From: Patescibacteria group bacterium
Lineage (GTDB): Bacteria > Patescibacteriota > Patescibacteriia > 2-02-FULL-49-11
Length of the DNA: 64,000 nucleotides
Reading direction: 5' to 3'
NCBI GenBank assembly: GCA_041645165.1
Contig: JBAZQN010000008.1
Coordinates: 2,374 to 66,373, forward strand
Shown here: piece after piece, positions 34,711-51,207 of the stretch
How positions within the stretch are numbered: position 1 is the first letter of the stretch
Layout of the letters: each line of letters opens with the position of its first letter
Notes under the pieces: generated by a model
What the model was told of the DNA's origin: nothing
Database searches by the model: none
What the model saw: only the letters and a program-made list of their open reading frames with translations
Translations under genes and position numbers: made by a program

Positions 34711-34861
34711 GCCATTTTGTCTGAAACGGCTCGAATGAATAGCTTAAATAATGAAATATAAATTACCTATCGTACATGGCGGTTTTTTTGTTTTTATGGT
34801 ACTCTGTGAGTGAAATTATTGATTAATGAGCCATTTGGCGCGAAATGGCTTGATTATAAAT

Positions 34862-37624
34862 ATGTCACTATTAACTAAAATTTTTGGCGACCCAAACGAG
34901 CGTTTTATTAAGGAAGTAACCCCACAGGTTGAACGGATTAATTCGCTTGAAGCAGAAAATAAAAAGCTCTCTGACGACGCGCTGAAGGCAAAGACGCAGG
35001 AATTTAAGGGCCGCGTTGAACAGGGCACCACGCTTGATGATTTATTACCAGAAGCCTTCGCCGCCGTGCGGGAAGCGGCGGGACGCACTATCGAACAACG
35101 CCATTTTGACGTGCAGCTCATTGGAGGCATGGCGCTTCACCGTGGCATGATCGCGGAAATGAGGACAGGAGAAGGAAAAACATTGACTGCCACGCTGCCT
35201 TTATATCTCAATGCGCTCGCAGGGAAAGGCGCTCATTTGGTCACAGTCAACGATTATCTTGCGCGTCTGCATGCGTCTTGGATGGGAAGGGTATATCATG
35301 CGCTTGGTCTTACCGTAGGCTGCACACAGCAGCAGTTAGTGTCGTATATTTATGATCCGGAAGCAAAAAAACAGGAAATCCCGAAAGACGGATCTGATGC
35401 CGAGGAAAAAGAAATTGCACGATATACCGTTGACATGGATTTTCTACGTCCCGTCACCCGTAAAGAGGCTTATGCGGCGGATATCACCTATGGCACGAAT
35501 AATGAATTCGGATTCGATTACCTGCGGGATAACATGGTAGGGGATCTTGCGGAAATGGCGCAGAGAGAATTGTGCTATGCCATTGTCGACGAGGTGGACT
35601 CTATCCTTATTGATGAGGCGCGCACGCCTCTTATTATTTCCGCTCCCGCGGAGGAGTCCGGTGATTTATATTATAAATTTGCCGATCTGGTTACGACGCT
35701 TTCCGAAGGCCCTGATTATAACGTGGATGAAAAAATGCGCACTGCAACGCTTACCGAGGAAGGCGTTCATAAAATGGAACGCGCGCTTAATATCACCAAT
35801 CTGTACGCGGAAGGAGGCTTAAATCTCGTGCATCATCTGGAGCAGGCGCTCCGTGCGCATGCGCTCTTTAAGCGCGACCGTGATTATGTGGTAAAAGACA
35901 ATGAAGTCATCATTGTGGATGAATTCACCGGCCGGCTCATGTTTGGGCGCCGTTATTCAGAAGGGCTCCATCAGGCCATTGAGGCAAAGGAAAAAGTGGA
36001 GATACAGCGCGAATCGCGTACGCTTGCCACGGTGACCTTCCAAAACTATTTTAGGCTTTATAAAAAACTCGCGGGCATGACAGGCACTGCAGTGACAGAA
36101 GCGGAAGAATTCCATAAAATATATAACCTTGATGTGGTATCGATCCCTACCCACCGCCCGATGATCCGCAAAGATTTGCCAGACCGGATTTACAAATCGG
36201 CAAATGGTAAATGGCAGTCAATAGTACAGGAGGTTAAAGTGCGCCATGAATCTGGACAACCAATTCTCATTGGCACGGTCTCCATTGAAAAAAACGAGCA
36301 TTTGTCGCATTTGCTTTCACTCGAGGGCATTCCTCATAACGTATTAAATGCTAAACGCCATGAAGAAGAGGCAAGATTCATCGCGCAAGCGGGAAAACGC
36401 GGTAGCGTGACGGTCGCTACAAATATGGCAGGGCGCGGCGTAGACATTATTTTGGGCGGCAACCCGCCGGCGGCAGATGAGGCGGCGCTCATTAAAAGCT
36501 TGGGAGGACTCCATGTGATCGGCACTGAGCGGCATGAAGCGCGGCGTATTGATAACCAACTGCGCGGACGTGCGGGACGCCAAGGCGATCCGGGATCGAG
36601 CCAATTTTTCCTTTCCATGGAAGACGACCTTATGCGCATTTTCGGTTCAGACCGCATGAAAGGGCTGATGGAGCGCATGGGTATGCCTGAGGACATGCCC
36701 ATTGAGAACCGCATGGTCTCCAAATCAATCGAATCAGCACAGAGGAAGGTGGAGGGACATAATTTCGACATCCGTAAACATTTAGTGGAATATGACGACA
36801 TTATCAATAAACACCGCGAAGTTATTTATAAAAAAAGAAGGGAAATACTCAACACTACCCAATCGCCTGACCCTTCCGCAATATCAAAAATACTGCTGAA
36901 TATGATCGAAGAAGAAATAAGCGCCGTGGTACTGTTTCATACCTCCGCACAAGCGACAGACGAATGGAATCTTGATGAGATTTATGAAACGGTTGATAGC
37001 ATTGTGCCCTTGCCGTTACAATCAAGGATTAAGATAGATGAGATACATGACGTTAAAAGTGAAAAAATGGGCGATGCGCCAAAACGAACGGCCATTGTGG
37101 GCTACCTCATGGGGTATGTTGAATCGCATTTTAAGGAATTAGAGACAAGCATAAATATCGCACTAAAATCTCCTGTATTCATAAATATCGAACGGGGCAT
37201 TCTCTTGCGCGCGATTGACACGCTTTGGATCGAGCATTTGGATGCCATGGATCACTTACGTACCGGTATTGGCCTGCGCGGGTATGGCCAGCGTGATCCT
37301 TTGGTGGAATATAAGCGGGAGTCATACCGTATGTTTACTGAATTGCTCACCGCCATTAGAAAAGAAGTGGTGTACTCTATTTTCAAAATCGGCGCTGCCC
37401 AGCGATTTGCGCAAAGCACGCTAGCGCGCGAACAGCCAATGATACTTTCAGGGCCTGCAAAAGAAATGGAACGGGCGCGCGCGGCCTCACAAGCGCAAAA
37501 CGCCGCCATATCAAAAACCACTTCATTTAATGGCAAAAAGGTGGGACGCAACGATCCCTGCCCATGCGGAGCAAAAAAACTAGATGGTACTCCGATAAAG
37601 TATAAGCACTGCCATGGGAAGTAG
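34862..37624 (+). CDS. secA: Preprotein translocase ATPase SecA.
   Basis: Start MSLLTKIFGDPNERFIKE, DEAD motor motifs (MRTGEGKTLTATLP, VDEVDSILIDEARTPLIIS) and a C-terminal Zn finger CPCGAKK...HCHGK. Confidence 0.95.
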   Translation: MSLLTKIFGDPNERFIKEVTPQVERINSLEAENKKLSDDALKAKTQEFKGRVEQGTTLDDLLPEAFAAVREAAGRTIEQRHFDVQLIGGMALHRGMIAEMRTGEGKTLTATLPLYLNALAGKGAHLVTVNDYLARLHASWMGRVYHALGLTVGCTQQQLVSYIYDPEAKKQEIPKDGSDAEEKEIARYTVDMDFLRPVTRKEAYAADITYGTNNEFGFDYLRDNMVGDLAEMAQRELCYAIVDEVDSILIDEARTPLIISAPAEESGDLYYKFADLVTTLSEGPDYNVDEKMRTATLTEEGVHKMERALNITNLYAEGGLNLVHHLEQALRAHALFKRDRDYVVKDNEVIIVDEFTGRLMFGRRYSEGLHQAIEAKEKVEIQRESRTLATVTFQNYFRLYKKLAGMTGTAVTEAEEFHKIYNLDVVSIPTHRPMIRKDLPDRIYKSANGKWQSIVQEVKVRHESGQPILIGTVSIEKNEHLSHLLSLEGIPHNVLNAKRHEEEARFIAQAGKRGSVTVATNMAGRGVDIILGGNPPAADEAALIKSLGGLHVIGTERHEARRIDNQLRGRAGRQGDPGSSQFFLSMEDDLMRIFGSDRMKGLMERMGMPEDMPIENRMVSKSIESAQRKVEGHNFDIRKHLVEYDDIINKHREVIYKKRREILNTTQSPDPSAISKILLNMIEEEISAVVLFHTSAQATDEWNLDEIYETVDSIVPLPLQSRIKIDEIHDVKSEKMGDAPKRTAIVGYLMGYVESHFKELETSINIALKSPVFINIERGILLRAIDTLWIEHLDAMDHLRTGIGLRGYGQRDPLVEYKRESYRMFTELLTAIRKEVVYSIFKIGAAQRFAQSTLAREQPMILSGPAKEMERARAASQAQNAAISKTTSFNGKKVGRNDPCPCGAKKLDGTPIKYKHCHGK

Positions 37625-38103: not shown

Positions 38104-38670
38104 ATGACTAAAGAATTACCAAAAAAATTTTATCAAAAAGGTGCAATTGAATTAGCTCCAAAATTTCTTGGAAAGTACTTGGTGCACAAGACAACTAAAG
38201 GAATCATTTCAGGTATGATCACGGATGTTGAAGCTTATCCTGCATATATAGACAAAGTATCGCATGGGAACATCAGGACGAAAAGAACTGAGGTAATGTA
38301 TCGTGAGGGTGGTTATGGCTATGTATATAAGATTTACGGTATCCATTATCAATTTGCAATAGTAGTAAATCAAAAAGATATTCCTGAAGTAGTCTTCATA
38401 AGAGCGGTGAAACCAGAAGAAGGGATTGATATGATGAGAAAGAATTTCGGCAAAGAGGTTGACACGACGACCCTTACGAAATCCCCGGGAAATCTATGTA
38501 AATCATTCGGAATTACTGATGCTTTTTATGGCATTGATTTAACTGGCGATATACTTTGGCTGGAAGATCGAAATGTGGTTATAGACAAAAAGGATATTTT
38601 GACCGATCAGAGAGTTGGGATAAATAAAAAACTTCAAGGGAGTGAAAAGAAGTTTAGATTTTTCCTGTAA
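38104..38670 (+). CDS. mpg: DNA-3-methyladenine glycosylase (Mpg/AAG family).
   Basis: FYQKGAIELAPKFLGKYLV...ITDVEAY...MYREGGYGYVY.IYGIHYQF pattern is typical of PF02245. Confidence 0.7.
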   Translation: MTKELPKKFYQKGAIELAPKFLGKYLVHKTTKGIISGMITDVEAYPAYIDKVSHGNIRTKRTEVMYREGGYGYVYKIYGIHYQFAIVVNQKDIPEVVFIRAVKPEEGIDMMRKNFGKEVDTTTLTKSPGNLCKSFGITDAFYGIDLTGDILWLEDRNVVIDKKDILTDQRVGINKKLQGSEKKFRFFL

Positions 38671-39215: not shown

Positions 39216-39644
39216 ATGAAAAATAAGATTCCTCAATGGATTGTGGTATCGGCTTGCATTACTGATACACAAGGCCGTATTTTCATGCAACGCCGTTTTG
39301 ATCCTCAAATACCTCTTGCTCATGGCAAATGGGAGTTTCCGGGAGGAAAGATTGAATCTGGAGAAAACCCCACTAAGGCCCTTAAGAGAGAATGCAAAGA
39401 AGAAATTGGTTGTGATATTACGATAAAACGCCTTATTCCGTATGTGTGGACCAATATTTGGAAAGAACGACACGGTAAACAAATACAAGCATTTCTTCTC
39501 TGCTATCATTGCTCCATAAAAAAAGGCAAACCACACCCTACAAATCCAGAAGTTTCGGAAATCCGCTGGTGTTCCCAAAAAGAAATAAAGAAATTAAAAG
39601 TGCTTCCCGGTACTCATGAATTTATTCAGCATGCGCATTTATAA
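39216..39644 (+). CDS. NUDIX hydrolase (NudG/MutT-like).
   Basis: Nudix box GGKIESGENPTKALKRECKEEIG. Confidence 0.8.
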   Translation: MKNKIPQWIVVSACITDTQGRIFMQRRFDPQIPLAHGKWEFPGGKIESGENPTKALKRECKEEIGCDITIKRLIPYVWTNIWKERHGKQIQAFLLCYHCSIKKGKPHPTNPEVSEIRWCSQKEIKKLKVLPGTHEFIQHAHL

Positions 39645-40968
39645 AGTCATCATTTTCATAATCGTTTTTGCAACACCTTTCACACTTCATGCCGAGGATG
39701 TACAGCAGCCCTTGCAGGCTGTTTTTGTTTCAAGTTCATCATTGAGTGCACTGCAGCGAATTACAGTACCCATACCCGAAGGATTGGGAAATGAATGGGA
39801 TGTAACTGCAATTGATCGCACTCTATTTTTTACCGCTACCCATGGCAATATTTACGCCTGGAGTCTTGATGAAAAGACGTTTAGCACGTTTCCGACCTAT
39901 GGGAAAGGATTCGATAATCCAATAGCCTATACCGCTTGCCGAAAACAAAACAGCACCTTTATTGCGGTAGTGCCGAGTTATGGGAATGCCCATGTGCTTA
40001 CCTTCGCACCCTCGGGAAGACTGTTGAATCCCGGTTTCTTTTTTGCGTCAAAGCCAAAATCGTATCGCACTATAACATGCGTTGATATAAATAATGATCA
40101 GAATGATGAATTAGTGATAGGGGAGAGGATAGGCAGCGCACTCACCATCACTATTTTGAATTTTATTGATGGAAAGCCAATTCAAACATTTAATATCAAC
40201 GATTGGGGACCGTTTGATTTTGAACTTAATCGTATTGATTTAGGAGGCGACGGCATTGATGAAATTCTTATCGGAAGCGGGGGATTGCGAGATCCTGAAA
40301 TTCGGATTTATCGCAGTGACGGTTCATTGATAAATTCTCTCATGGCGTTTCCAAATGAATTTAAGGGCGGCATCTACGTGCAAAGCGGCGATTTGGATTA
40401 TGACGGGAAAGAAGAATTAATCGTTGGATCGGGCCCGGGAAGCGGGCAGCTCCGCGTACTGGATGGATTTGGCAATGAAAAGATGACGAATAAATTCTTC
40501 CCCTTAGGAGCAAATTTTCGGGGCGGTGTAATTCCATTAAAGGTGAATGATGAAATCATAGCTTTGCAGTCATCACGGCTCATAGAGGATAGTTCACTTT
40601 CTAAATCCATATCTATTAACACTACAGACCAAACATTATCTGTGCTTGCGTATGGCTACTTATTTGCCTCTTTTCCCATCTCTACAGGCACATGGGATTA
40701 TCCCACTCCTCTTGGGAATCACAAGGTAATCAATAAAATCCCACGCGCGTATTCGCGCCGTTGGGGGCTTTTCATGCCGTGGTGGATGGCAATCGTGCCA
40801 TCCGGCACCTATGGCATCCACGAGCTGCCAGAGTGGCCTAATGGAACAAAAGAGGGCGAAGACCACCTTGGGAGCCGCCGTTCCCACGGCTGTATACGGG
40901 TGGGGGTAGGAGTTGCAAAAGCGCTCTACGATTGGACTCCAATTGGCACTCCCATTATAGTTAAATAA
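39616..40968 (+). CDS. Secreted L,D-transpeptidase (YkuD domain) with N-terminal FG-GAP/VCBS-like repeats.
   Basis: Signal peptide. Repeats DGIDEILIGSGG / DYDGKEELIVGSGPG. C-terminal catalytic motif YGIHE...GSRRSHGCIRV. Confidence 0.75.
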   Translation: MNLFSMRIYKVIIFIIVFATPFTLHAEDVQQPLQAVFVSSSSLSALQRITVPIPEGLGNEWDVTAIDRTLFFTATHGNIYAWSLDEKTFSTFPTYGKGFDNPIAYTACRKQNSTFIAVVPSYGNAHVLTFAPSGRLLNPGFFFASKPKSYRTITCVDINNDQNDELVIGERIGSALTITILNFIDGKPIQTFNINDWGPFDFELNRIDLGGDGIDEILIGSGGLRDPEIRIYRSDGSLINSLMAFPNEFKGGIYVQSGDLDYDGKEELIVGSGPGSGQLRVLDGFGNEKMTNKFFPLGANFRGGVIPLKVNDEIIALQSSRLIEDSSLSKSISINTTDQTLSVLAYGYLFASFPISTGTWDYPTPLGNHKVINKIPRAYSRRWGLFMPWWMAIVPSGTYGIHELPEWPNGTKEGEDHLGSRRSHGCIRVGVGVAKALYDWTPIGTPIIVK

Positions 40969-41047: not shown

Positions 41048-41139
41048 GAGGGGATGGGGAGGTCTCCTTTGGAAAAAGGTGAACTCTAGGTACTTTTTTG
41101 ACTTTTTTAGAGATTTTGATACAATGCGTAAGGATTTCT

Positions 41140-42858
41140 ATGACTAATAAACAAAGGCTTTGGATGTATGTAGGGCTCATCATAGCGCTCTTTTTAATTG
41201 CACTTATTTTTGCCGCGCCTAAACTCCCCACTGCGGTTCCCGCGGCTTCTTTTTTTGCTAAATTTCCTTATAAATTAGGCTTGGATCTCAAGGGAGGCGC
41301 CCACCTTATTTACCAAGCAGACACCTCGCAAGTGCCCTTTGCAGACAAACAATCCGCAATCAACGGCGTCCGCGATGTAATCGAACGGCGGGTCAATGCG
41401 TTCGGCATTTCAGAACCTCTGGTGCAAACTAACCAATCAGGCGATGAATACCGCGTCATTGTGGAGCTTGCAGGCGTATTTAATGTTGATGAGGCGATAA
41501 AACTTATCGGAGAAACTCCGTTGCTTGAATTTAAAACGCAAAACCCCGTAGCGGATGCACCGCTTACTGAAGAACAAAAGCAACAGCTTATAAAAGATAA
41601 TGAAACAGTCCTGAAGAGCGCTCAAGAAGTACTCGTGCAATCACATGCACCCAATGCTGATTTTAGCGCATTGGCAAAACAATATTCAGAAGACCCTGGA
41701 TCCAAAGAGCAGGGAGGGGATTTAGGATGGGCAAAAAAGGGAGTATTTGTGCCTGAATTCGATAAGGCGATTTTTGAAACCCTTAAAGCAGGGGAAACCA
41801 CCAAAGAATTAGTGCAAACCCAATTCGGCTACCATATTATCAAAAAGATTGAAGAGCGCGAGGTGGAAGGCGCGGCGAAAGGTGAACCGGAAAAGGAAGT
41901 CCATGCCGCGCATATACTCCTCCGCACCATCGCTGAACAAGATATCTCATCTCAAGTTGACCCGTGGGTTAATACCGCGCTCTCGGGAAAACAACTTAAG
42001 CGCGCCAGTGTTCAATTCAACTCACAAACAGGGGAACCGAATGTCAATCTGGAATTCAATGATGAGGGATCGAAACTTTTTGCGGAGCTCACCGGCGCCA
42101 ACATCGGCAAACCTATTGCTATATTTCTTGACGGGCAGGCAATTTCAGTGCCTACGGTTCAGGAAAAAATTGAAGGCGGCAGCGCAGTCATCACCGGGAG
42201 GTTTAATATAAAAGAAGCCCGCACGCTCGCAGAACGCCTCAATGCGGGCGCGCTGCCCGTCCCCATTCATTTGATTGCGCAAACCACCGTAGGCCCCACC
42301 CTCGGTTCTTTGTCTTTAAACCAGAGCCTGCGCGCAGGTATGATAGGAATACTTATCGTAATGTTATTCATGATATTGTACTATCGTTTACCCGGCATCA
42401 TCGCTTCGTTCGCGTTATTGCTCTATGCGAGCATCGTACTTGTTCTTTTTAAACTCATACCCGTGACACTCACGCTCGCAGGCATAGCCGGCTTTATCCT
42501 TTCAGTGGGCATGGCAGTTGACGCGAATATCCTTATTTTTGAGCGTCTCAAAGAAGAGCTAAAAGCGGGAAGGGACCTGCCCACGGCCGTTGAAGAAGGC
42601 TTTAAACGCGCGTGGACCTCCATCCGAGATTCGAATTTTTCGTCTCTCATCACCTGTGCGGTCCTTATGTGGTTTGGCAGCTCTGTCATCAAAGGTTTTG
42701 CAGTTACCCTGATCATCGGTATTCTTTCATCCATGTTTACCGCCATTACCGTAAGCAGAACCATTTTAAAGGCAATCGCCTTAACCGGAGCGAAGAGGCA
42801 TTTATGGATGTTTGGTTACCACCGCATTGAGACTAAGAGTGGCGATATGAAAATGTAA
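41140..42858 (+). CDS. secD: Protein-export membrane protein SecD with an embedded PpiC/parvulin-type PPIase domain.
   Basis: SecD blocks (LGLDLKGGAHLIYQAD; ...GKPIAIFLDGQAISVPTVQEKIEGGSAVITG; 6 C-terminal TM). The inserted ~90 aa carry ...FSALAKQYSEDPGSKEQGGDLGWAKKGVFVPEFDKAIFETLKAGE...FGYHIIKKIE, the parvulin signature. Confidence 0.75.
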   Translation: MTNKQRLWMYVGLIIALFLIALIFAAPKLPTAVPAASFFAKFPYKLGLDLKGGAHLIYQADTSQVPFADKQSAINGVRDVIERRVNAFGISEPLVQTNQSGDEYRVIVELAGVFNVDEAIKLIGETPLLEFKTQNPVADAPLTEEQKQQLIKDNETVLKSAQEVLVQSHAPNADFSALAKQYSEDPGSKEQGGDLGWAKKGVFVPEFDKAIFETLKAGETTKELVQTQFGYHIIKKIEEREVEGAAKGEPEKEVHAAHILLRTIAEQDISSQVDPWVNTALSGKQLKRASVQFNSQTGEPNVNLEFNDEGSKLFAELTGANIGKPIAIFLDGQAISVPTVQEKIEGGSAVITGRFNIKEARTLAERLNAGALPVPIHLIAQTTVGPTLGSLSLNQSLRAGMIGILIVMLFMILYYRLPGIIASFALLLYASIVLVLFKLIPVTLTLAGIAGFILSVGMAVDANILIFERLKEELKAGRDLPTAVEEGFKRAWTSIRDSNFSSLITCAVLMWFGSSVIKGFAVTLIIGILSSMFTAITVSRTILKAIALTGAKRHLWMFGYHRIETKSGDMKM

Positions 42859-42981: not shown

Positions 42982-43920
42982 ATGACTATGCTTGCTATAA
43001 TCCCTAATAGAAAATACAATCTTGGATTCTCAGCGCTGCTCATAGTGCTGTCCGCTACGGCATTATTTGTGTGGGGATTAAAATTTGGCATTGATTTTAC
43101 CGGCGGTGCCATGGTAGAGCTTGAGTCTACATTAATAAATCCGCCTGCATCGTATGAAATTCAACAGAAGCTCATAAGTGATGGATTTGATGTTGCTTCA
43201 ATCCAAATGAGCAATCAAAATACGTATCTCATACGGTTAGGCATCATGGATGAAGGCGAACACCAGCGATTTACAAAGAGCATGGAGGAGAATTTTAATT
43301 CGCTGCAAAAAAGCGAGGGAGCTGACAAGGCCTATATTGAAAAGCGTTTTGAATCAATCGGTCCGACCATCAGTAATGAATTCCGACAAAAATCATATTT
43401 GGCAATCATTATTGCGCTTCTCGCAATCATCGCGTATATCGGATACTCCTTCAGGAAGGTTTCAAAGCCCGTGGCGAGCTGGAAATACGGGGTATGCGCG
43501 GTGATCGCGCTCATGCACGATGTTGCCATCCCCACAGGCATTTTTGCAGTGCTTGGACATTATGCGGGCTGGGAAGTGGATCTGCTATTCATCACGGCGC
43601 TGCTTACCGTCTTAGGGTTCTCTGTACACGATACTATCGTCGTATATGACAGGATCAGGGAAAATTTGCTAAAGATCGGAGGTCGAAATTTCGCGGAAAT
43701 AGCGAACATAAGCGTCAATCAAACCCTCGCCCGATCCATCAATACTTCCTTGGTGACTATTATCGTGCTTGCGGCTCTTTTTGTGCTTGGCGGCGAGACC
43801 ACAAGGCATTTCGTGCTTGTGCTTATCACCGGCATCGTATTCGGCACCTATTCTTCCATATTTATCGCTTCGCCTCTTTTGGTTATCTGGAACAATATAA
43901 GTCAAAAAAATAAAAAATAG
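42982..43920 (+). CDS. secF: Protein-export membrane protein SecF.
   Basis: LKFGIDFTGGAMVEL start and 6 TM helices of the SecDF family. Position after secD. Confidence 0.85.
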   Translation: MTMLAIIPNRKYNLGFSALLIVLSATALFVWGLKFGIDFTGGAMVELESTLINPPASYEIQQKLISDGFDVASIQMSNQNTYLIRLGIMDEGEHQRFTKSMEENFNSLQKSEGADKAYIEKRFESIGPTISNEFRQKSYLAIIIALLAIIAYIGYSFRKVSKPVASWKYGVCAVIALMHDVAIPTGIFAVLGHYAGWEVDLLFITALLTVLGFSVHDTIVVYDRIRENLLKIGGRNFAEIANISVNQTLARSINTSLVTIIVLAALFVLGGETTRHFVLVLITGIVFGTYSSIFIASPLLVIWNNISQKNKK

Positions 43921-43962: not shown

Positions 43963-44880
43963 TTATTCTGCGATTCCTCTCCATGCAATGCGTTGCGCAT
44001 TGCCGCCGACAGGATAGCAGGTGACCAGAGTAAGGGTAGGCGTATCACTAATGGCAAATAATCTTTTATCATCAGGATACACAACCATGGATTCAGTGAG
44101 AATATAGCGGACGAACCGCTTTTTTTTATTCTGGTAGGTATACGTAAATTCCACCGCATCTCCTTTTTTAAGATCAGGAAGATCCTTGAAGATATCAGTA
44201 TACGGGCCTTGCTGCCATACATAGTCTGAAGAATGCCCTGTGATAAAGCTGTTTCCGCGCTCACCCGGGCTGGCAGTCCCGGGATAATGGATAGCACCTC
44301 TTTTGAGATCTTGCTCTATGCGTTTAACATCATCAGATTCAGACCAAACCACAGGAGCGAGTACCCTAAGCGAGGGGATGGATATCGTAAGCGCGGGCCT
44401 CCCTTTCCCCGTGGGATCAAATCCATTTTCCACCTCAAGCCCGTCAGGAAATGTGTCTCCATCGCTGTCGGCAATGTCACTCCCTGTGCCTATAATTTGT
44501 TCTAATGCGTCACTCAAGCCGTCACTATCCTTGTCAGAGACCTTTGTGTTTTTCACTGCAAATTCAGCAGGAAGAGAACCAGCGCCCAATGGATTTTGAT
44601 TGCGTAAAATCTCATCGCCGTCATGCGTCCCATCAGCGTCAGAGTCGGGCAAATAAGTATTAGTGCCATAAAGTCGCTCTTCAGGATCCGATAAGCCGTC
44701 ATGATCACTGTCGCTCATGAATGATTCCACCCTTTCAAATGATCCTACATACGCGCGCACCGTTGACCAATTCATGATGAAAGTGGCGATGAGTCCGGTA
44801 AAGAGGGAACAGAAGATCGCAAATGTCGTTCGCGACATTTGCGGAAGTGGCAATGATGGCGTCTGTTTTAACGTTAACAT
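43963..44880 (-). CDS. Sortase-family transpeptidase with N-terminal TM and Asp-rich calcium-binding-like repeats.
   Basis: C-terminal catalytic TLTLVTCYP (TLxTC) preceded by His and Arg contexts. Four DxDxDG-type repeats (SDSDHDGLSD, DSDADGTHDGDE, DKDSDGLSD, DSDGDTFPDG). Confidence 0.65.
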   Translation of the reverse strand: MLTLKQTPSLPLPQMSRTTFAIFCSLFTGLIATFIMNWSTVRAYVGSFERVESFMSDSDHDGLSDPEERLYGTNTYLPDSDADGTHDGDEILRNQNPLGAGSLPAEFAVKNTKVSDKDSDGLSDALEQIIGTGSDIADSDGDTFPDGLEVENGFDPTGKGRPALTISIPSLRVLAPVVWSESDDVKRIEQDLKRGAIHYPGTASPGERGNSFITGHSSDYVWQQGPYTDIFKDLPDLKKGDAVEFTYTYQNKKKRFVRYILTESMVVYPDDKRLFAISDTPTLTLVTCYPVGGNAQRIAWRGIAE

Positions 44881-44890
44881 GCCTGTATAT

Positions 44891-46243
44891 TTAGACTAAC
44901 GAATTATTTTTAGTCTTGTAGAGGAAACCCAGCACACCGGCGAATATGCTGAATACCAGGATAGAGAGAAGCGCTGAAGGGCCTGTCCTTGGCGATTCTT
45001 GAATAGCTGCTCTGACACGGGGCGTACCGGAAAGGATAGTAGTAATAATCTCCGTGCTATCGATTTGATAATTCTTAGCGCTTGCACTCACGGTAAGCGC
45101 GACAGGCGTTTGATAGGGAGCATTTGAGGTCACTTGAAATACTGGATTCCATGTCCTCACTTCCCCATTATCGAGCTGATCGATTTCCCAATAAAGCGTA
45201 TTTTTTTCTTTAATCCCGCCTTGAGAATCAAGAATGTCAAAATATAAAGGGTCAAAATGAAGTGACACTAAAATACCTTCTGCGCGCGACCCTGAATAAT
45301 TAGTTACTATGATCTCGCTATTGACCCTTTCGCCACGATAAGCAGTATGCGAAGTTACTCGATATTCATTTTCGTCACTCACGAGCATGCGAACTGACAA
45401 TGAGTCATTCCCCTCAATGGCATCAAGCAGTGTTGTGCTGGTAAGGTAATCAAACCTCGTGGCATTATCCGCAGTAATAGTGACCATATTCGTCAGCTTG
45501 TCCAGTGTGGATGATCCGCGCACCCTCACCGTAACCGTCTGAATGGCTTTTTGTCCCGGATAAAAATTTCCCACACTCCAGCGCACTTCACCGGCCTGCA
45601 CCGAACCGCCTGTGCTTGTCTGAATAATATCAGCATTTTGTTCGTCAAAATCGTCTGTAAGGATCGTATTGCGTGCTATGGTATTTCCATCATTCCGGTA
45701 GGAGATGGTATAGGCAATTAAATCACCCTGCCTTACTGTATCCTTGTCTGCGCTTACGGTGGCAACCAGCACCGGCTTAGCCTGCGCAGATATATTAACA
45801 GTAGGTGTGGTAAGTGATGACACATTATCCGCGCTTAATCGCGCGAAGGCTGAAATAGTCGTAGTGCCGCTGGGCAACTGCTCTTTTATGGTGAACCAAA
45901 ACACTCTCACTTCTGTGGTTTTTTGCGTTAAACGCTCCTGAGTATATATAACCGTTCCCAAACTTTGCACCGCACTGCCAATATCATGGGGAGTAAGCAG
46001 GTGCTCGTCATAGTCCAAAATAATGCGTATGTTGTCAGCGTTTTCAAACGCGGTATTTGCATAGGTAACAGTATAACCAATTATATCACCCGGCGATGCT
46101 TCATTTTTTGTCACTGAGAGCCCCAGAGAAAGAATCGCATTCGCTGATGCGTTCGATACGAATAAAGTACTAGTGAATGCGGTTGAAATTACGGCAAACA
46201 TAGCTGCGTAAGAGAATGCCTTGTGAATAGGTATTAATTTCAT
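44891..46243 (-). CDS. Cell-surface protein with signal peptide and C-terminal sorting signal (likely substrate of the adjacent sortase).
   Basis: N-terminal signal peptide (...FVSNASA). C-terminal ...QESPRTGPSALLSILVFSIFAGVLGFLYKTKNN: xPxTG-like motif, then a hydrophobic helix and a basic tail. Repetitive beta-rich body. Confidence 0.6.
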   Translation of the reverse strand: MKLIPIHKAFSYAAMFAVISTAFTSTLFVSNASANAILSLGLSVTKNEASPGDIIGYTVTYANTAFENADNIRIILDYDEHLLTPHDIGSAVQSLGTVIYTQERLTQKTTEVRVFWFTIKEQLPSGTTTISAFARLSADNVSSLTTPTVNISAQAKPVLVATVSADKDTVRQGDLIAYTISYRNDGNTIARNTILTDDFDEQNADIIQTSTGGSVQAGEVRWSVGNFYPGQKAIQTVTVRVRGSSTLDKLTNMVTITADNATRFDYLTSTTLLDAIEGNDSLSVRMLVSDENEYRVTSHTAYRGERVNSEIIVTNYSGSRAEGILVSLHFDPLYFDILDSQGGIKEKNTLYWEIDQLDNGEVRTWNPVFQVTSNAPYQTPVALTVSASAKNYQIDSTEIITTILSGTPRVRAAIQESPRTGPSALLSILVFSIFAGVLGFLYKTKNNSLV

Positions 46244-46498: not shown

Positions 46499-47698
46499 AT
46501 GAATTCGATTCTTGAAAAAGTTCTCCTTTCTCAAGAGATTACAGAGCGGCAGAAGTTGAGCCCTGTAGATATCTGCACCCAGTTATTAAAACTGCTTACC
46601 AATCGCGAGGCAGATGTGCTTCGTTTGCGTTTTGGCCTAGACGGAAATGGCACACATACGCTTGAGATTATCGGCAAAAGGTACACAATTACAAGGGAAC
46701 GCGTACGGCAGATTGAGCATCAAAGCATCCAAAAACTTAAACAATCCAAACAGTTCCAGGAAATTTCAGAAGGCATTTCCACGCTTGTTACACATAACCT
46801 TACGCAGCACGGCGGCATGCGCCGCCAAGACGTGCTTCTTAATGACTTACTCTCGCTCTCGGGCGATTCGTCTGTTAACCGCAACTGCTTATCATTTATC
46901 ATCGAACAGCTTTTAAATACGGCCATTGAAGAAATAAAATCTGAAGCAATTCTGCCAAGCTGGAAACTGAAAGAATTTTCCTCGCAGCTTTTCACGGAAA
47001 CAATTGCATCTATCGAATCATTGTTGGAATCAAAAGGACAGCCGGTCAGCTTTGATGCGTTGCTTAATGAATTTTTGCGCAGCAATTTTTATCAGGAACA
47101 TGCGCAGGAGTACCAATCATTTGTACTCTTCTCATCATCCCCCGAACAAGATGAGCGCTCGATGGTTGAGCGCGTGCTTAATACCTACCTTGAATGCTCC
47201 ACCTCAGTGCTGCAAAATCCCTTCAATGAATGGGGAATGTCCCGCTGGCATAGCATTAAGCCAAAAAGAATGAGTGATAAAATTTATCTCGTGCTTAAGA
47301 AATACGGCAAGCCAATGCATTTTACCGAGATCACGGAGCAAATTAATAAGACTCGCTTCGACCACAAAGTGGCGCATGCGCCAACCGTACATAATGAACT
47401 TATTCTCGACAAGCGTTTTGTTCTTGTCGGAAGAGGAATATACGCGCTTCAAGAATGGGGATATAAGCCGGGCGTAGTTGCTGATGTGATCGCTTCCATC
47501 CTGAGTCGTGCGCCAAACCCTTTAAGCCGTGAGGAAATTATCGATGAAGTGCTCAAACAACGGTTTGTGAAAAAAGGCACCATTTTACTTGCATTGACGT
47601 CACATGATACTTTTTTACACCTTCCGGACGGTCGTTTTATGTTCAAAAAAATTGTCTCTCAAGCTCCGGAAACCGTCCACACAGAACAAAATAAATAA
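46499..47698 (+). CDS. Hypothetical protein with an N-terminal sigma-70 region-4-like HTH.
   Basis: EADVLRLRFGLDGNGTHTLEIIGKRYTITRERVRQIEHQSIQKLK matches sigma70_r4. The rest has no recognised family. Confidence 0.5.
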   Translation: MNSILEKVLLSQEITERQKLSPVDICTQLLKLLTNREADVLRLRFGLDGNGTHTLEIIGKRYTITRERVRQIEHQSIQKLKQSKQFQEISEGISTLVTHNLTQHGGMRRQDVLLNDLLSLSGDSSVNRNCLSFIIEQLLNTAIEEIKSEAILPSWKLKEFSSQLFTETIASIESLLESKGQPVSFDALLNEFLRSNFYQEHAQEYQSFVLFSSSPEQDERSMVERVLNTYLECSTSVLQNPFNEWGMSRWHSIKPKRMSDKIYLVLKKYGKPMHFTEITEQINKTRFDHKVAHAPTVHNELILDKRFVLVGRGIYALQEWGYKPGVVADVIASILSRAPNPLSREEIIDEVLKQRFVKKGTILLALTSHDTFLHLPDGRFMFKKIVSQAPETVHTEQNK

Positions 47699-47707
47699 AC
47701 ATTCGTT

Positions 47708-49096
47708 GTGGATATCACTATCAATCTCGCGCCTTTTTTCGATGCGGCCGCAAATAACCCACTCACGGTAGGGTGGTTTCTTCTTATCCACGGGGGATGG
47801 ATGCCTGTTCTTGTGGTAATATTGAGCACATTTTGGCATGTACGATTGCGTAATATCAGAGCAGCATACCTCCATCATCTTAACTATACAATTTTTGCAA
47901 TCGATGTTCCGAAGTTAAACGAACAATCTACCAGAGCAGTAGAGCAAATATTCGCGCAATTAGCAGGAGCGTTCTCCGGCGTTAACCTGATTGAGAAATA
48001 TATCCAGGGCAAAAATCAGGAAAGTTTCTCATTTGAAATAGTTTCTCTCGGAGGCTATATCCAATTTTTAGTGCGTACCCCAACCCATTTTCGCGATCTC
48101 ATTGAGGCGGCAATTTATGCACAATATCCTGATGCAGAAATTACCGAGGTGGAAGACTACACAGGCATGATTCCCCGGCAATACCCCTCTGATGAATTTA
48201 ATTTATGGGGCACTGAGCTCAAGCTTAACCGTAAAAGCGTGTATCCCATTCGAACCTATCCGCTCTTCGAGCACACCCTTACACAAAAATTTGCCGACCC
48301 AATGGCTGCGCTCCTGGAAATTATGAGCCATATGCACCCAGGTGAAAATATTTGGATCCAATGGGTAATTACGCCCATTGGAGACGGGTGGAAAGAAAAA
48401 GGCATCAATGAAGCGAAAAAATTGATTGGCGCACATGTAAAACAGGCGCCCACGCTTACTGCACGGGCGCTGCAACCGGTTCGCATAGTAACTGGAGGGG
48501 CAAGCGAAGTGCTCCTCCATGGATTGGGTATTTCTCCATATCATGTTGAAGGTGCGGCAGCGAAAGACATGCCAAGTCACATACAATATCTGTCTCCTGG
48601 AGAACGCGCGATCGTTGAGGCCATTGAAGCAAAAATTTCTAAAGTCGGTTTCCACGCTAAATGCCGCATTATTTATGTCGCGAAAAAAGAAATATTCGAT
48701 AAAGCGCGCGGTGTTGCGGGTATTTTGGGCGCCTTTAGCCAATTTAGCGCATTGAATCTCAACAGTTTTGAACCCGCAGGCAAGGTGACCACAAAAGCAA
48801 ATTATTTCTTCACTAAACGCAGAATCGCCAAACGCCAAAAAAAAATAGCGCGCGCATTCCGCCAACGAAGCAAAGAATTAGGATGGGGTCATGGCATGAT
48901 ATTGAATACCGAGGAATTGGCAACGGTGTGGCATTTCCCCGTTGCAGAGGTGAAAGCCCCGTTAGTGAAGATGACTGAAGCGAAAAAAGGAGAGCCCCCG
49001 GCTGAGTTGCCGATAGAAATTATGGAGCCTGCCGCAAGTGATGCACAGACATCCAAAATACAAGAAGCGGAAACGCCGGAAAATTTACCCGTATAA
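47708..49096 (+). CDS. Hypothetical membrane-anchored protein (possible partner or N-terminal module of the downstream coupling-protein-like ATPase).
   Basis: N-terminal TM (VGWFLLIHGGWMPVLVVILSTFW). Otherwise unassigned. Confidence 0.3.
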   Translation: MDITINLAPFFDAAANNPLTVGWFLLIHGGWMPVLVVILSTFWHVRLRNIRAAYLHHLNYTIFAIDVPKLNEQSTRAVEQIFAQLAGAFSGVNLIEKYIQGKNQESFSFEIVSLGGYIQFLVRTPTHFRDLIEAAIYAQYPDAEITEVEDYTGMIPRQYPSDEFNLWGTELKLNRKSVYPIRTYPLFEHTLTQKFADPMAALLEIMSHMHPGENIWIQWVITPIGDGWKEKGINEAKKLIGAHVKQAPTLTARALQPVRIVTGGASEVLLHGLGISPYHVEGAAAKDMPSHIQYLSPGERAIVEAIEAKISKVGFHAKCRIIYVAKKEIFDKARGVAGILGAFSQFSALNLNSFEPAGKVTTKANYFFTKRRIAKRQKKIARAFRQRSKELGWGHGMILNTEELATVWHFPVAEVKAPLVKMTEAKKGEPPAELPIEIMEPAASDAQTSKIQEAETPENLPV

Positions 49097-49221: not shown

Positions 49222-51207
49222 ATGAATAACACTATGACTGATCAAATTTCCCAAAACAATGACATCTGCTACTTTGCGATGACTAATTTTCGCGGCCAAA
49301 ATCGCAAATTTGGCATACGCACTGATGACCGCCGCAAACACATGTACCTCATTGGTAAAACCGGCATGGGGAAATCAACGACCCTCGAGAATATGATCAT
49401 ACAGGATATACGCGAAGGAAGGGGAGTGGGAGTAGTGGATCCTCATGGCGATTTGGTTGAAAAAATATTGGACTATATCCCCCCGCACCGCATCAACGAT
49501 GTCATATATTTTAATCCCGCTGACATTGATTACCCTATTGCATTCAATATTCTTGAAAACGTAGATCCCCGCTATAAGCACCTTGTCGCGTCCGGACTTA
49601 TGGGAGTATTCACAAAAATTTGGGCAAATGTTTGGTCAGCACGAATGGAATATATCATGAATAATTGCATCCTCGCCCTGCTTGATTCTCCCGGCAATAC
49701 CCTTCTAGGGATCAACCGCATATTAGTTGATAAGGAATACCGGCATAAAATTGTAAGCCGCATTTTAGATCCTGTCGTGCGGTCGTTCTGGGTGAATGAA
49801 TACGCGAATTACAACGACCGATTCCGCACTGAAGCAATCGCGCCAATCCAAAATAAGGTTGGGCAATTTCTTTCGACCGCAATTGTGAGAAATATTGTCG
49901 GGCAGACGCAATCGACCATAGATATGCGGGAAATCATGGATACCAAAAAAATCCTCATCCTCAATCTTGCGAAAGGACGCATAGGCGAGGACAATTCGTC
50001 GCTTTTGGGCGCGATGATGATTACCAAGCTGCAGCTTGCAGTCATGAGCAGGGTAGATATTCCTGAAAAAGAAAGGAATGATTTCTTCCTTTATGTGGAT
50101 GAATTTCAAAATTTTGCGACGACCTCATTTTCAGACATCCTCTCTGAAGCAAGAAAATATCGCCTCTCGCTCATTATGGCGCACCAATACATAGAACAAC
50201 TTGAGGAAGAGGTGGCTGCGGCGGTATTTGGCAACGTCGGCACTATCGCCTGTTTCCGCGTGGGCGCCACCGATGCGGAAGAGCTGGTAAAGGAATTTAC
50301 CCCTTATTTCACTGAAGAAGATTTGGTAAATCTCACTAAATATGACATTTATCTGCGGCTTATGATCAACGGCGTGGCGTCAAGGCCATTTTCGGCCACG
50401 TCGCTCCCGCCGCTTCGCACCGATGAAATGACAGGGAATCGTGAAAAAGTAATCGCGGTGTCAAGAGAGCGGTATACGAAACCGCGAGAGGAAGTTGAAG
50501 AGAAAATTATCAGATGGACCGGTATAGAAGATATGTATTCCACCACTGCTGAATTGGATAATATCGCTGGTATTGCCGAGGATGAGCAGCGGTATCGCGA
50601 ACTTCCCGCAGCTCCTCTACCTACTGAAAAACCGACAAATGAACCTGCCGTTTCTCAAGGGCCAGAACCAAAAAATGCCACATGTGACAATTGCGGTCGC
50701 GGTACGCTTATCACATTTACCCCGGATGAAAAACGCAACGTATTTTGCAAAAGCTGTCTGAAAAAATTTCGTCAGGGCCTTATCGACATCACCACTTTAA
50801 AAAAACGCAATATCCCTGAAGTGTATGATGCTCCTCCTGCGCACACACAAGCCGCTCCCACAGACAATACTGCTCATAAGACACAAAGCGCCCCTGTTTC
50901 CGCAAGCCCTAATTTTGTCATACTGAAACCACCGCCCAAACTCTCTCCATCGCAGCATGATGAGCAAGTGCGAAAGATACCCATACTTCCCGTATCCTAT
51001 CCTAGTGAGTTATCGCTGCGAGACGCCCTTCAAACCGAGCCAATTCCTTTCCATAAATTACGCGGCAATAAATTAAAAAGGCGCCTTACGACAGAAACCA
51101 CGCCCTTTGAAACACAAAAAGAACCCGCTGAATATGCTCCGCCCATGCCTAAACCGCGCCATTATGTCATCAAAGGGATTCCTCCCAAAAAAGTGGTTCC
51201 ATTATAA
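49222..51207 (+). CDS. VirD4/TraD/TraG-like (type IV coupling protein-like; FtsK/HerA superfamily) P-loop ATPase with a C-terminal zinc ribbon and a Pro-rich tail.
   Basis: Walker A LIGKTGMGKST, a downstream VVDPHGDL box, Walker B FLYVDEFQNF and SLIMAHQYIEQL (T4CP-like sensor). C-terminal CDNCGRG...CKSC. Confidence 0.55.
   Translation: MNNTMTDQISQNNDICYFAMTNFRGQNRKFGIRTDDRRKHMYLIGKTGMGKSTTLENMIIQDIREGRGVGVVDPHGDLVEKILDYIPPHRINDVIYFNPADIDYPIAFNILENVDPRYKHLVASGLMGVFTKIWANVWSARMEYIMNNCILALLDSPGNTLLGINRILVDKEYRHKIVSRILDPVVRSFWVNEYANYNDRFRTEAIAPIQNKVGQFLSTAIVRNIVGQTQSTIDMREIMDTKKILILNLAKGRIGEDNSSLLGAMMITKLQLAVMSRVDIPEKERNDFFLYVDEFQNFATTSFSDILSEARKYRLSLIMAHQYIEQLEEEVAAAVFGNVGTIACFRVGATDAEELVKEFTPYFTEEDLVNLTKYDIYLRLMINGVASRPFSATSLPPLRTDEMTGNREKVIAVSRERYTKPREEVEEKIIRWTGIEDMYSTTAELDNIAGIAEDEQRYRELPAAPLPTEKPTNEPAVSQGPEPKNATCDNCGRGTLITFTPDEKRNVFCKSCLKKFRQGLIDITTLKKRNIPEVYDAPPAHTQAAPTDNTAHKTQSAPVSASPNFVILKPPPKLSPSQHDEQVRKIPILPVSYPSELSLRDALQTEPIPFHKLRGNKLKRRLTTETTPFETQKEPAEYAPPMPKPRHYVIKGIPPKKVVPL

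Follow-up and report, generated by a model that had tools for sequence, protein, structure and literature searches.

A putative circularly permuted parvulin domain built into the export subunit SecD of Patescibacteria

Why does the secD gene of a Patescibacteria group bacterium carry the signature motifs of a parvulin, a type of peptidyl-prolyl isomerase (PPIase), and what might such a domain do inside a subunit of the protein-export machinery? The gene lies on a stretch of 64,000 nucleotides (nt), here called the window, in whose numbering all coordinates are given; the parvulin module within SecD is referred to as the insert. An earlier interpretation made from the letters alone (the sequence-only reading) had proposed a SecD with an internal parvulin domain of about 90 amino acids (aa), situated in the first periplasmic loop, which normally forms the P1 head, and had suggested that export and folding would thereby be coupled. 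We found that the gene does encode a SecD with an internal parvulin domain, as established by profile matches to both families, and located the two motifs, GGDLGW and FGYHII, on which the proposal was founded. The analysis also brought out a feature that is new relative to that reading, namely that the parvulin appears to be circularly permuted.

The protein belongs to the SecD family and carries all of the defining features examined. It matched the NCBIfam model for secD, TIGR01129, from the first to the last of its 397 positions (aa 46-543) with 404.0 bits against a cut-off of 244.4, and was 29-30% identical to Thermus SecDF (3aqp; phmmer E-value 7e-86). The AlphaFold2 (AF2) model of the whole protein had a mean predicted local distance difference test score (pLDDT) of 83, rising to about 90 across the parvulin, and in Foldseek it matched SecDF structures with E-values of 1e-22 to 1e-25, the closest being the F-form, 3aqp_A (TM-score 0.53). 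Along the chain, Pfam recognised SecD_1st (PF21760; aa 77-135, 6e-15), a rotamase domain, SecDF_P1_head (PF22599; aa 278-374, 1.5e-33) and SecD_SecF_C (aa 378-546), in that order. The rotamase match, sought with hidden Markov models as the sequence-only reading had recommended, was strong for both Rotamase_3 (PF13616; aa 152-239, 5e-22, 79.0 bits against a cut-off of 22.5) and Rotamase (PF00639; aa 150-237, 2e-20, 74.1 bits against 21.7), while PF13145 reached 23.9 bits on the insert and stayed under its cut-off of 27. SurA_N, SurA_N_2, SurA_N_3 and Trigger_C had no Pfam match in the protein. Since it lacks a SurA_N domain, SecD is not a member of the PrsA/SurA/PpiD family; plausibly, with its insert, it works like such a foldase. 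The reading frame is a single open reading frame (ORF) with no interruption. An in-frame TTG at 41098 offers an alternative start, which we consider less likely because the sequence AAGGA precedes the ATG and because 98-99% of the ATG version is spanned by its close homologues, which are 555-570 aa long.

The position of the insert was deduced from hydropathy and from alignment to proteins of known structure. Between the first transmembrane (TM) segment and the C-terminal hydrophobic segments (aa 393-543), about 365 residues (aa 27 to about 392) are hydrophilic, and AF2 predicted helices at aa 389-439, 446-475, 480-512 and 515-548 in the C-terminal region. In the alignment to Thermus SecDF 3aqp, aa 15-156 correspond to residues 12-139 and aa 280-557 to residues 159-437. 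Because the hydrophilic TM1-TM2 loop matches that of the solved Thermus protein, in which the loop is the periplasmic P1 domain, the insert must be extracytoplasmic, in agreement with the topology that had been proposed. The aligned positions on either side (aa 156 with residue 139, aa 280 with residue 159) show that the extra segment is absent from the SecDF proteins of Thermus and Deinococcus. About 140 aa (roughly aa 137-279) replace some 20 aa of Thermus SecDF between the PLLEFK strand of the P1 base and the head, so that the insert is larger than the 90 aa first estimated. The placement in the first extracytoplasmic loop was right, but the head itself is not replaced: its profile was matched at positions 18-114 of 114, starting right after the insert, and the module thus sits at the base-to-head junction, in front of a retained head.

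The motor part of SecD also looks intact, as far as can be judged from conserved residues, domain content and gene order. Asp461, within GMAVDANILIFER of the membrane bundle, aligns with GAAVDGNVLSFER of Thermus SecDF, and both D461 and N463 were invariant in the 115 homologues that made up our conservation set (mean identity to the window SecD of about 57%). We take the counterpart of D461 to be Thermus D340, the membrane-embedded Asp of the proton pathway. The P1 head is intact, and a gene for the partner subunit SecF follows; a SecF-like ORF also comes immediately afterwards in at least nine related loci.

Canonical parvulins are built of strand 1, three helices, strand 2, helix 4 and strands 3-4, and the first strand bears one of the two active-site histidines. 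The insert does not keep this order, as strand 1 follows strand 4. The Pfam profile was matched only at positions 11-96 of 97, strand 1 being missing in front of the core. Past FGYHII comes the linker EEREVEGAAKGEPEK and then EVHAAHILLRT, within the segment EVHAAHILLRTI, which aligns with the strand EVHARHILLKP of the second parvulin (P2) of SurA. In its native order the insert aligned with E. coli SurA as the P1 core, the inter-domain linker and strand 1 of P2 (82 bits). When strand 1 was moved in front of the core in silico, the insert aligned with SurA P2 from end to end (6-119) in a single stretch, and the match to the isolated SurA parvulin 4g2p rose by about 9 bits, from 59.0 in native order to 68.0. 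The AF2 models, from which strands were assigned using DSSP strings and pLDDT, agree with this arrangement. Past strand 4 (aa 230-242) and a gap of eight residues they place a strand at aa 251-262, for which the pLDDT was 91 when the whole protein was modelled and 97 when aa 133-282 were modelled by themselves (core pLDDT 95-97, predicted TM-score 0.77), and strand 2 (aa 194-199) was predicted as a paired strand. The parvulin sheet has the strand order 2-1-4-3. The placement of the 251-262 strand after strand 4, together with the paired strand 2, gives the pattern that the canonical sheet requires, suggesting that the permuted domain adopts the native parvulin sheet. In homologues, I234 and H258 are separated by anything from 17 to 51 residues, a variable spacing that fits a loop joining the old termini. 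Together, these alignments and models argue that the insert is a circularly permuted parvulin, homologous to the PF00639/PF13616 family but of non-canonical topology. We found neither a fusion of SecD with a parvulin nor a permuted parvulin described in the literature covered, which left most subscription journals out of scope.

If the domain is permuted, is it still fit for catalysis? In the conservation set, D185, H232 and H258 were invariant, as were G193, G230 and L260, and the hydrophobic-pocket positions L195 and F207 were at least 90% conserved. We take D185, H258 and H232 to be the equivalents of Pin1 C113, H59 and H157, respectively; H258 aligns with the strand-1 histidine of SurA P2. 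The signature FSALAKQYSEDPGSKEQGGDLG was kept across the single-parvulin family, and the helix preceding the core and the tethers were about 50% conserved. For an estimate of selection we used the SecD of Candidatus Uhrbacteria RIFCSPLOWO2_02_FULL_49_11 (locus L001; 92.6% identity by BLASTP), for which synonymous divergence (dS) is unsaturated. The ratio of nonsynonymous to synonymous substitution rates (dN/dS) was 0.065 for the parvulin core and 0.094 for the whole insert, as compared with 0.059 for the P1 base, 0.016 for the P1 head and 0.034 for the TM region. The insert is thus under purifying selection comparable to that on the remainder of SecD. The conserved residues suggest that it would be enzymatically active as a peptidyl-prolyl cis-trans isomerase, presumably acting on translocating substrates.

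A survey of homologues, which the sequence-only reading had recommended, recovered the same fusion in more than 100 SecD proteins. All of the best 120 database homologues (55-91% identity) had both rotamase and SecD Pfam domains, and the named hosts among them were Patescibacteria, that is, ultra-small bacteria of the Candidate Phyla Radiation (CPR): Uhr-, Kuenen-, Buchanan- and Komeilibacteria and Parcubacteria. The annotation of these fusion proteins is SecD only. We also surveyed loci, taking one genome per GTDB species and inspecting the best 80. Relatives of the query segment were encoded in at least 506 among the 600 pattern matches listed, some of them being ordinary parvulins of other phyla, and the complete architecture of N-terminal part, insert and C-terminal part was found in at least 63 of the 80 best loci, which added Kerfeld-, Veblen- and Nomurabacteria and Moraniibacteriota to the hosts. 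In all, the fusion architecture occurs in more than 100 independent assemblies (NCBI, JGI, ENA and Logan). The matches from Ignavibacteria, Acidobacteriota and Chloroflexota were ordinary parvulin proteins of canonical order without SecD parts. Searched against representative sequences, a junction-spanning segment gave 16 matches with E-values of 1e-30 or below, a mixed set in which multi-parvulin proteins score similarly; the fusion family collapses at 50% identity in that search. As the precomputed Pfam lists of the homologues already include the rotamase and SecD families, the architecture is latent in the databases and is not undiscovered sequence. In the matches surveyed, the fusion forms a large family confined to the CPR, probably of single origin.

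A spread beyond the CPR through loci labelled Gammaproteobacteria, Bdellovibrionales or Endomicrobiaceae was considered and rejected, because the encoded proteins share up to 97% identity with those of CPR-named records. Loci with non-CPR titles were L007, L009, L015-L017, L020, L022-L024, L032-L034, L036, L038, L043, L044, L048, L051, L053, L058, L060-L062, L066 and L068, the last of which is titled Nanoarchaeia and has a stand-alone foldase of CPR type. To judge from the sequence identities, the titles of these records of metagenome-assembled genomes look like mislabels or contamination.

Where might a permuted parvulin have come from? The same permuted parvulin is found in a large family of stand-alone, membrane-anchored PrsA-like foldases of the CPR (P0271-P0390; L064:3305-4405, L068:2561-3622), which consist of a TM helix, a SurA_N domain and a rotamase; their hosts are Saccharimonadia, Parcubacteria and others, and they are annotated 'peptidylprolyl isomerase' or 'foldase protein PrsA'. 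In 115 of 120 such proteins strand 1 was absent upstream of the core and a sequence of the type FGYHIIKVIDKxDDKVHAAHILIK was present downstream. The L064 foldase shares 38% identity with the insert across 189 aa, leading helix included. The stand-alone proteins differ from the fusion in having no SecD parts and in the tight turn between strands 4 and 1, with 13 residues to the His as against 17-51 in SecD. A regular-expression screen for further permuted parvulins among tandem-parvulin proteins yielded candidates that were rejected, as they have canonical upstream strands with HIM or HIR.

Some SecD proteins of the CPR carry two parvulins at the same insertion site (P0129, P0123, P0125, P0185, which is MBU2566878.1 of Patescibacteria, P0198 and P0244/P0392). 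Their full-length forms are about 680-694 aa long, and they are laid out as PLLEFK or PILEFK, core 1, strand 1 with core 2 (FGYHLIY), a trailing strand 1 and the P1 head, so that these inserts, too, begin at helix 1 and finish with strand 1. Given this constancy of the permuted boundaries, the simplest scenario is that a ready-made permuted module moved from a PrsA-like protein into SecD, and we infer that internal duplication or nested insertion followed in some lineages. Two other variations on SecD were seen. P0121, P0124 and P0137 have an extra acidic, DxDxDG-like loop within the P1 head (e.g., DTDGDGVVTERD and DTNEDGKIDGND) that recalls calcium-binding loops, and P0137 is a single-chain SecD-SecF fusion of 905 aa with a parvulin and a long linker of GVEGVKGVEG type.

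We think it fairly probable that the protein is a functional SecD of the SecDF motor that carries, in cis, a foldase of the PrsA/PpiD/SurA type at the exit of the translocon. In such a proton-driven export motor, a complete permuted parvulin would be held between the P1 base and the mobile head, and the chain would run from the base strand PLLEFK into parvulin helix 1, on to strand 4 (FGYHII), through the variable linker to strand 1 (EVHAAHILL) and from there into the P1 head. An unfolded secretory chain leaving SecYEG would be handled by P1 and bound by the tethered parvulin, which would catalyse prolyl isomerisation as P1 cycles and thereby help the chain to be released and to fold at the exit. 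Polypeptide binding and movements that respond to proton transport have been ascribed to P1, SurA has been located at the periplasmic domains of SecDF by electron microscopy (EM), and the SurA parvulin domains have been predicted to lie on the P1 head (PMC9987972). PpiD/YfgM acts at SecYEG (PMC9643414), and in Mycoplasma pneumoniae the parvulin lipoprotein Mpn444, whose PPIase activity has been measured, forms specific cross-links with SecD (bioRxiv 10.1101/2024.09.05.611430). These cases provide independent precedent for parvulin foldases that work with SecD or the translocon. The coupling of export and folding envisaged in the sequence-only reading is reasonable to propose, but it is not a demonstrated function. 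That reading also supposed that the cell would lack most dedicated chaperones; the 64-kb window has no other parvulin, but other CPR bacteria encode stand-alone PrsA-like foldases.

Several observations weigh against a catalytic, permuted parvulin as the explanation. In PpiD and in SurA P1 the parvulin domain is useful although it lacks catalytic activity, so that conserved residues do not prove catalysis, and the two parvulin histidines also serve structural roles. The first unit of the two-parvulin SecDs is degenerate at catalytic residues (NGYEIFK, GGNLDW), which shows that at least one copy can do without catalysis. Moreover, a Foldseek search with the model of the insert gave three significant matches only, all to chains of one Bacteroides PPIase (8hm3/8hm4), and small canonical parvulins were not among them. 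(8hm3/8hm4 is the periplasmic PPIase of Bacteroides fragilis that is targeted by the toxin BfUbb; the TMq was 0.62 over 122 aligned columns.) The main rival reading, conceivable if rather unlikely, is that the insert is mainly a non-catalytic holdase or a structural extension of the P1 head that widens the grip on unfolded chains, isomerisation being irrelevant. The degenerate unit and the inactive domains of PpiD and SurA would then be its precedents, the modest conservation of the pre-core helix and tethers would be in keeping with it, and the P1 head is both the proposed polypeptide-binding element and the predicted docking site of the SurA parvulins (PMC9987972). However, the invariance of D185, H232 and H258 and the retention of FSALAKQYSEDPGSKEQGGDLG exceed what is typical of degenerate, inactive parvulins, and the second unit of the two-parvulin SecDs retains both FGYH and the strand-1 His. 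The insert might instead be a regulatory or docking module that tunes the P1 hinge or brings other envelope machinery to the translocon, for example a sortase, enzymes of the cell wall or pilus assembly. A module placed precisely where the base meets the head, and tethered to both, would suit that role, as would the envelope genes nearby (an L,D-transpeptidase, a sortase and a sortase substrate); we regard it as improbable, since conservation is focused on catalytic and substrate-pocket residues and not on a distinct surface. That the fusion is an artefact, whether a chimeric assembly, genes joined by a frameshift or a decaying pseudogene, can be practically dismissed: the uninterrupted ORF, the recurrence in independent assemblies and the strong purifying selection refute it, and the confident AF2 models speak against it as well. 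The parvulin in SecD is a real feature, and a cis-acting foldase within a working SecD is the reading that we favour.

Table 1. Features of the secD locus and of the encoded protein (window numbering).
Feature	Position (nt)	Strand	Details and basis
secD coding sequence with parvulin insert	41140 (ATG)..42858	+	572 aa plus stop; ORF list
Shine-Dalgarno-like AAGGA	41130..41134	+	5 nt before the secD ATG; read from the sequence
TM1 (aa 8-26), N-terminus inside	41161..41217	+	Hydropathy maximum 2.71; K4/R6 precede; AF2 helix 3-25
N-terminal part of P1 base (aa 44-135), ending in conserved PLLEFK strand	41269..41544	+	SecD_1st; aligns with Thermus 12-139; mean column identity 0.81
Whole insert (aa 137-275): putative permuted parvulin and two tethers	41548..41964	+	Absent from Thermus/Deinococcus SecDF; AF2
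Parvulin core, helix 1 to strand 4 (aa 150-239)	41587..41856	+	Rotamase_3, Rotamase; SurA, PrsA and Par10 matches
D185 in parvulin core	41692-41694	+	
GGDLGW (aa 192-197)	41713-41730	+	
FGYHII with H232 (aa 229-234)	41824-41841	+	
Linker from old C-terminus (strand 4) to old N-terminus (strand 1) (aa 241-252)	41860..41895	+	Low pLDDT
Predicted relocated parvulin strand 1, EVHAAHILLRTI (aa 253-264), with H258 (nt 41911-41913)	41896..41931	+	SurA P2 alignment; AF2
P1 head, retained (aa 278-374)	41971..42261	+	SecDF_P1_head; aligns with Thermus SecDF from residue 159
TM2-TM6 bundle (aa 378-546)	42271..42777	+	SecD_SecF_C; includes membrane D461 (nt 42520-42522) in GMAVDANILIFER
secF (312 aa), partner subunit	42982..43920	+	123 nt past secD; TIGR00966, 270.7 bits against cut-off 160; SecD_SecF_C, 1.7e-56
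secA (932 aa)	34826..37624	+	3.5 kb before secD; four SecA Pfam domains, E-values down to 7e-121; not necessarily co-transcribed

Together, secA and the secD-secF pair (Table 1) stand in a loose secretion and envelope neighbourhood. Between them lie two NUDIX-like ORFs, a methylpurine DNA glycosylase (38104-38670) and a transpeptidase; the gene directly upstream of secD (39616-40968, +) encodes a 450-aa secreted protein with FG-GAP repeats and a C-terminal YkuD L,D-transpeptidase domain. On the other side, a sortase gene (43963-44880, -) adjoins one for a DUF11-repeat surface protein (44891-46243, -). The sortase (PF04203, 3e-21) has a TLVTC motif and TSP3-like acidic repeats, the surface protein has SPRTGP, a hydrophobic tail and basic residues at its C-terminus, and the two are probably a sortase-substrate pair with a non-LPXTG sorting motif. 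The presence of a sortase and its substrate beside secDF suggests that the host organisms are probably monoderm, with surface proteins anchored to the wall, which makes 'extracytoplasmic' a safer term than 'periplasmic' for the location of the insert. Further along come a protein with sigma-70 region 4 and a HARE-HTH domain (46499-47698, +), a 462-aa ORF with no Pfam match (47708-49096, +) and a TraD/VirD4-like coupling ATPase with a treble-clef zinc finger (49222-51207, +); the three genes may be what is left of a conjugative or type IV-like DNA-transfer module. Elsewhere in the 64-kb window there is no second parvulin gene, and no Rfam families were detected in it. A promoter-like site at 41098-41125 (+; TTGACT, a 16-nt spacer and TG-TACAAT, 10/12), which overlaps the alternative TTG start, was set aside as probably due to chance (8 such sites against 5.5 expected); it is also doubtful because the transcription start would fall within or after the Shine-Dalgarno sequence.

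What would a foldase inside SecD mean for protein export more generally? In outline the fusion is easy to detect and mechanistically unsurprising, but it is useful for the question of how the translocon hands its substrates to chaperones. Arguments about how exported chains pass from the Sec channel to folding factors outside the cytoplasm still draw on cross-links, low-resolution EM and AlphaFold docking. A widespread fusion that puts a parvulin inside the mobile P1 domain adds independent evidence, from genomes, that export and folding activities belong together. It also offers a one-polypeptide system in which their coupling can be tested. The fusion might even serve as a Rosetta stone, in that P1 of SecDF would be a general docking and working site for parvulins, an active permuted parvulin would have replaced PrsA in these CPR bacteria, and the permuted fold would be CPR-wide, having arisen once and later passed into SecD from a PrsA-like donor. 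We put this forward only tentatively, as an attractive but doubtful extension; if true, P1 would be the physiological site for PrsA, PpiD and SurA at the translocon exit in bacteria generally. The permuted parvulin is an apparently undescribed fold variant, present both in SecD and in the stand-alone CPR foldases. The fusion adds to the picture of genome-reduced CPR bacteria that consolidate envelope functions, and thousands of database entries named only "SecD" may conceal a second, probably enzymatic, function.

The solved SecD and SecDF proteins of Thermus thermophilus, Deinococcus radiodurans and E. coli (PDB 3AQP, 5YHF, 5XAM/5XAN and 5MG3) belong to the same family as the window SecD and are 25-30% identical to it. 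They share with it TM1, a large P1 loop made of base and head, a five-helix C-terminal bundle with the conserved Asp, and SecF as a partner. Unlike the window protein, with its parvulin module of some 140 aa at the start of the P1 head, they are without a foldase domain.

Separate parvulin foldases resemble the insert in other ways. PrsA of Bacillus subtilis and other Firmicutes (PDB 4WO7, 5HTF and 6VJ6) matched it with E-values of 1e-12 to 1e-16 and is likewise an extracytoplasmic, non-phospho-specific parvulin with the SEDPGSK, GGDLG and FGYHII motifs, working on Sec substrates in monoderm cells. PrsA, however, is a separate lipoprotein, with a parvulin of normal order inside a SurA-N-like chaperone domain. 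The best sequence match of the insert was to E. coli SurA, with its tandem parvulins P1 and P2 (PDB 1M5Y); SurA is soluble, is recruited non-covalently and has the canonical strand order, whereas the parvulin of the window SecD is held covalently within the P1 loop. The PpiD/YfgM complex of E. coli includes a membrane-tethered, parvulin-containing chaperone that sits where chains leave the translocon and promotes their translocation and release (PMC9643414). PpiD is a separate protein that competes and cooperates with SecDF and is not part of it. Finally, the minimal, wall-less Mycoplasma pneumoniae has surface proteins with a parvulin-type PPIase domain, Mpn444 and Mpn436, that cross-link specifically to SecD and for which a role in folding chains as these leave the translocon has been proposed (bioRxiv 10.1101/2024.09.05.611430). 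These are separate trimeric lipoproteins with extra domains and associate non-covalently with SecD, whereas in the window SecD the parvulin is covalently built in.

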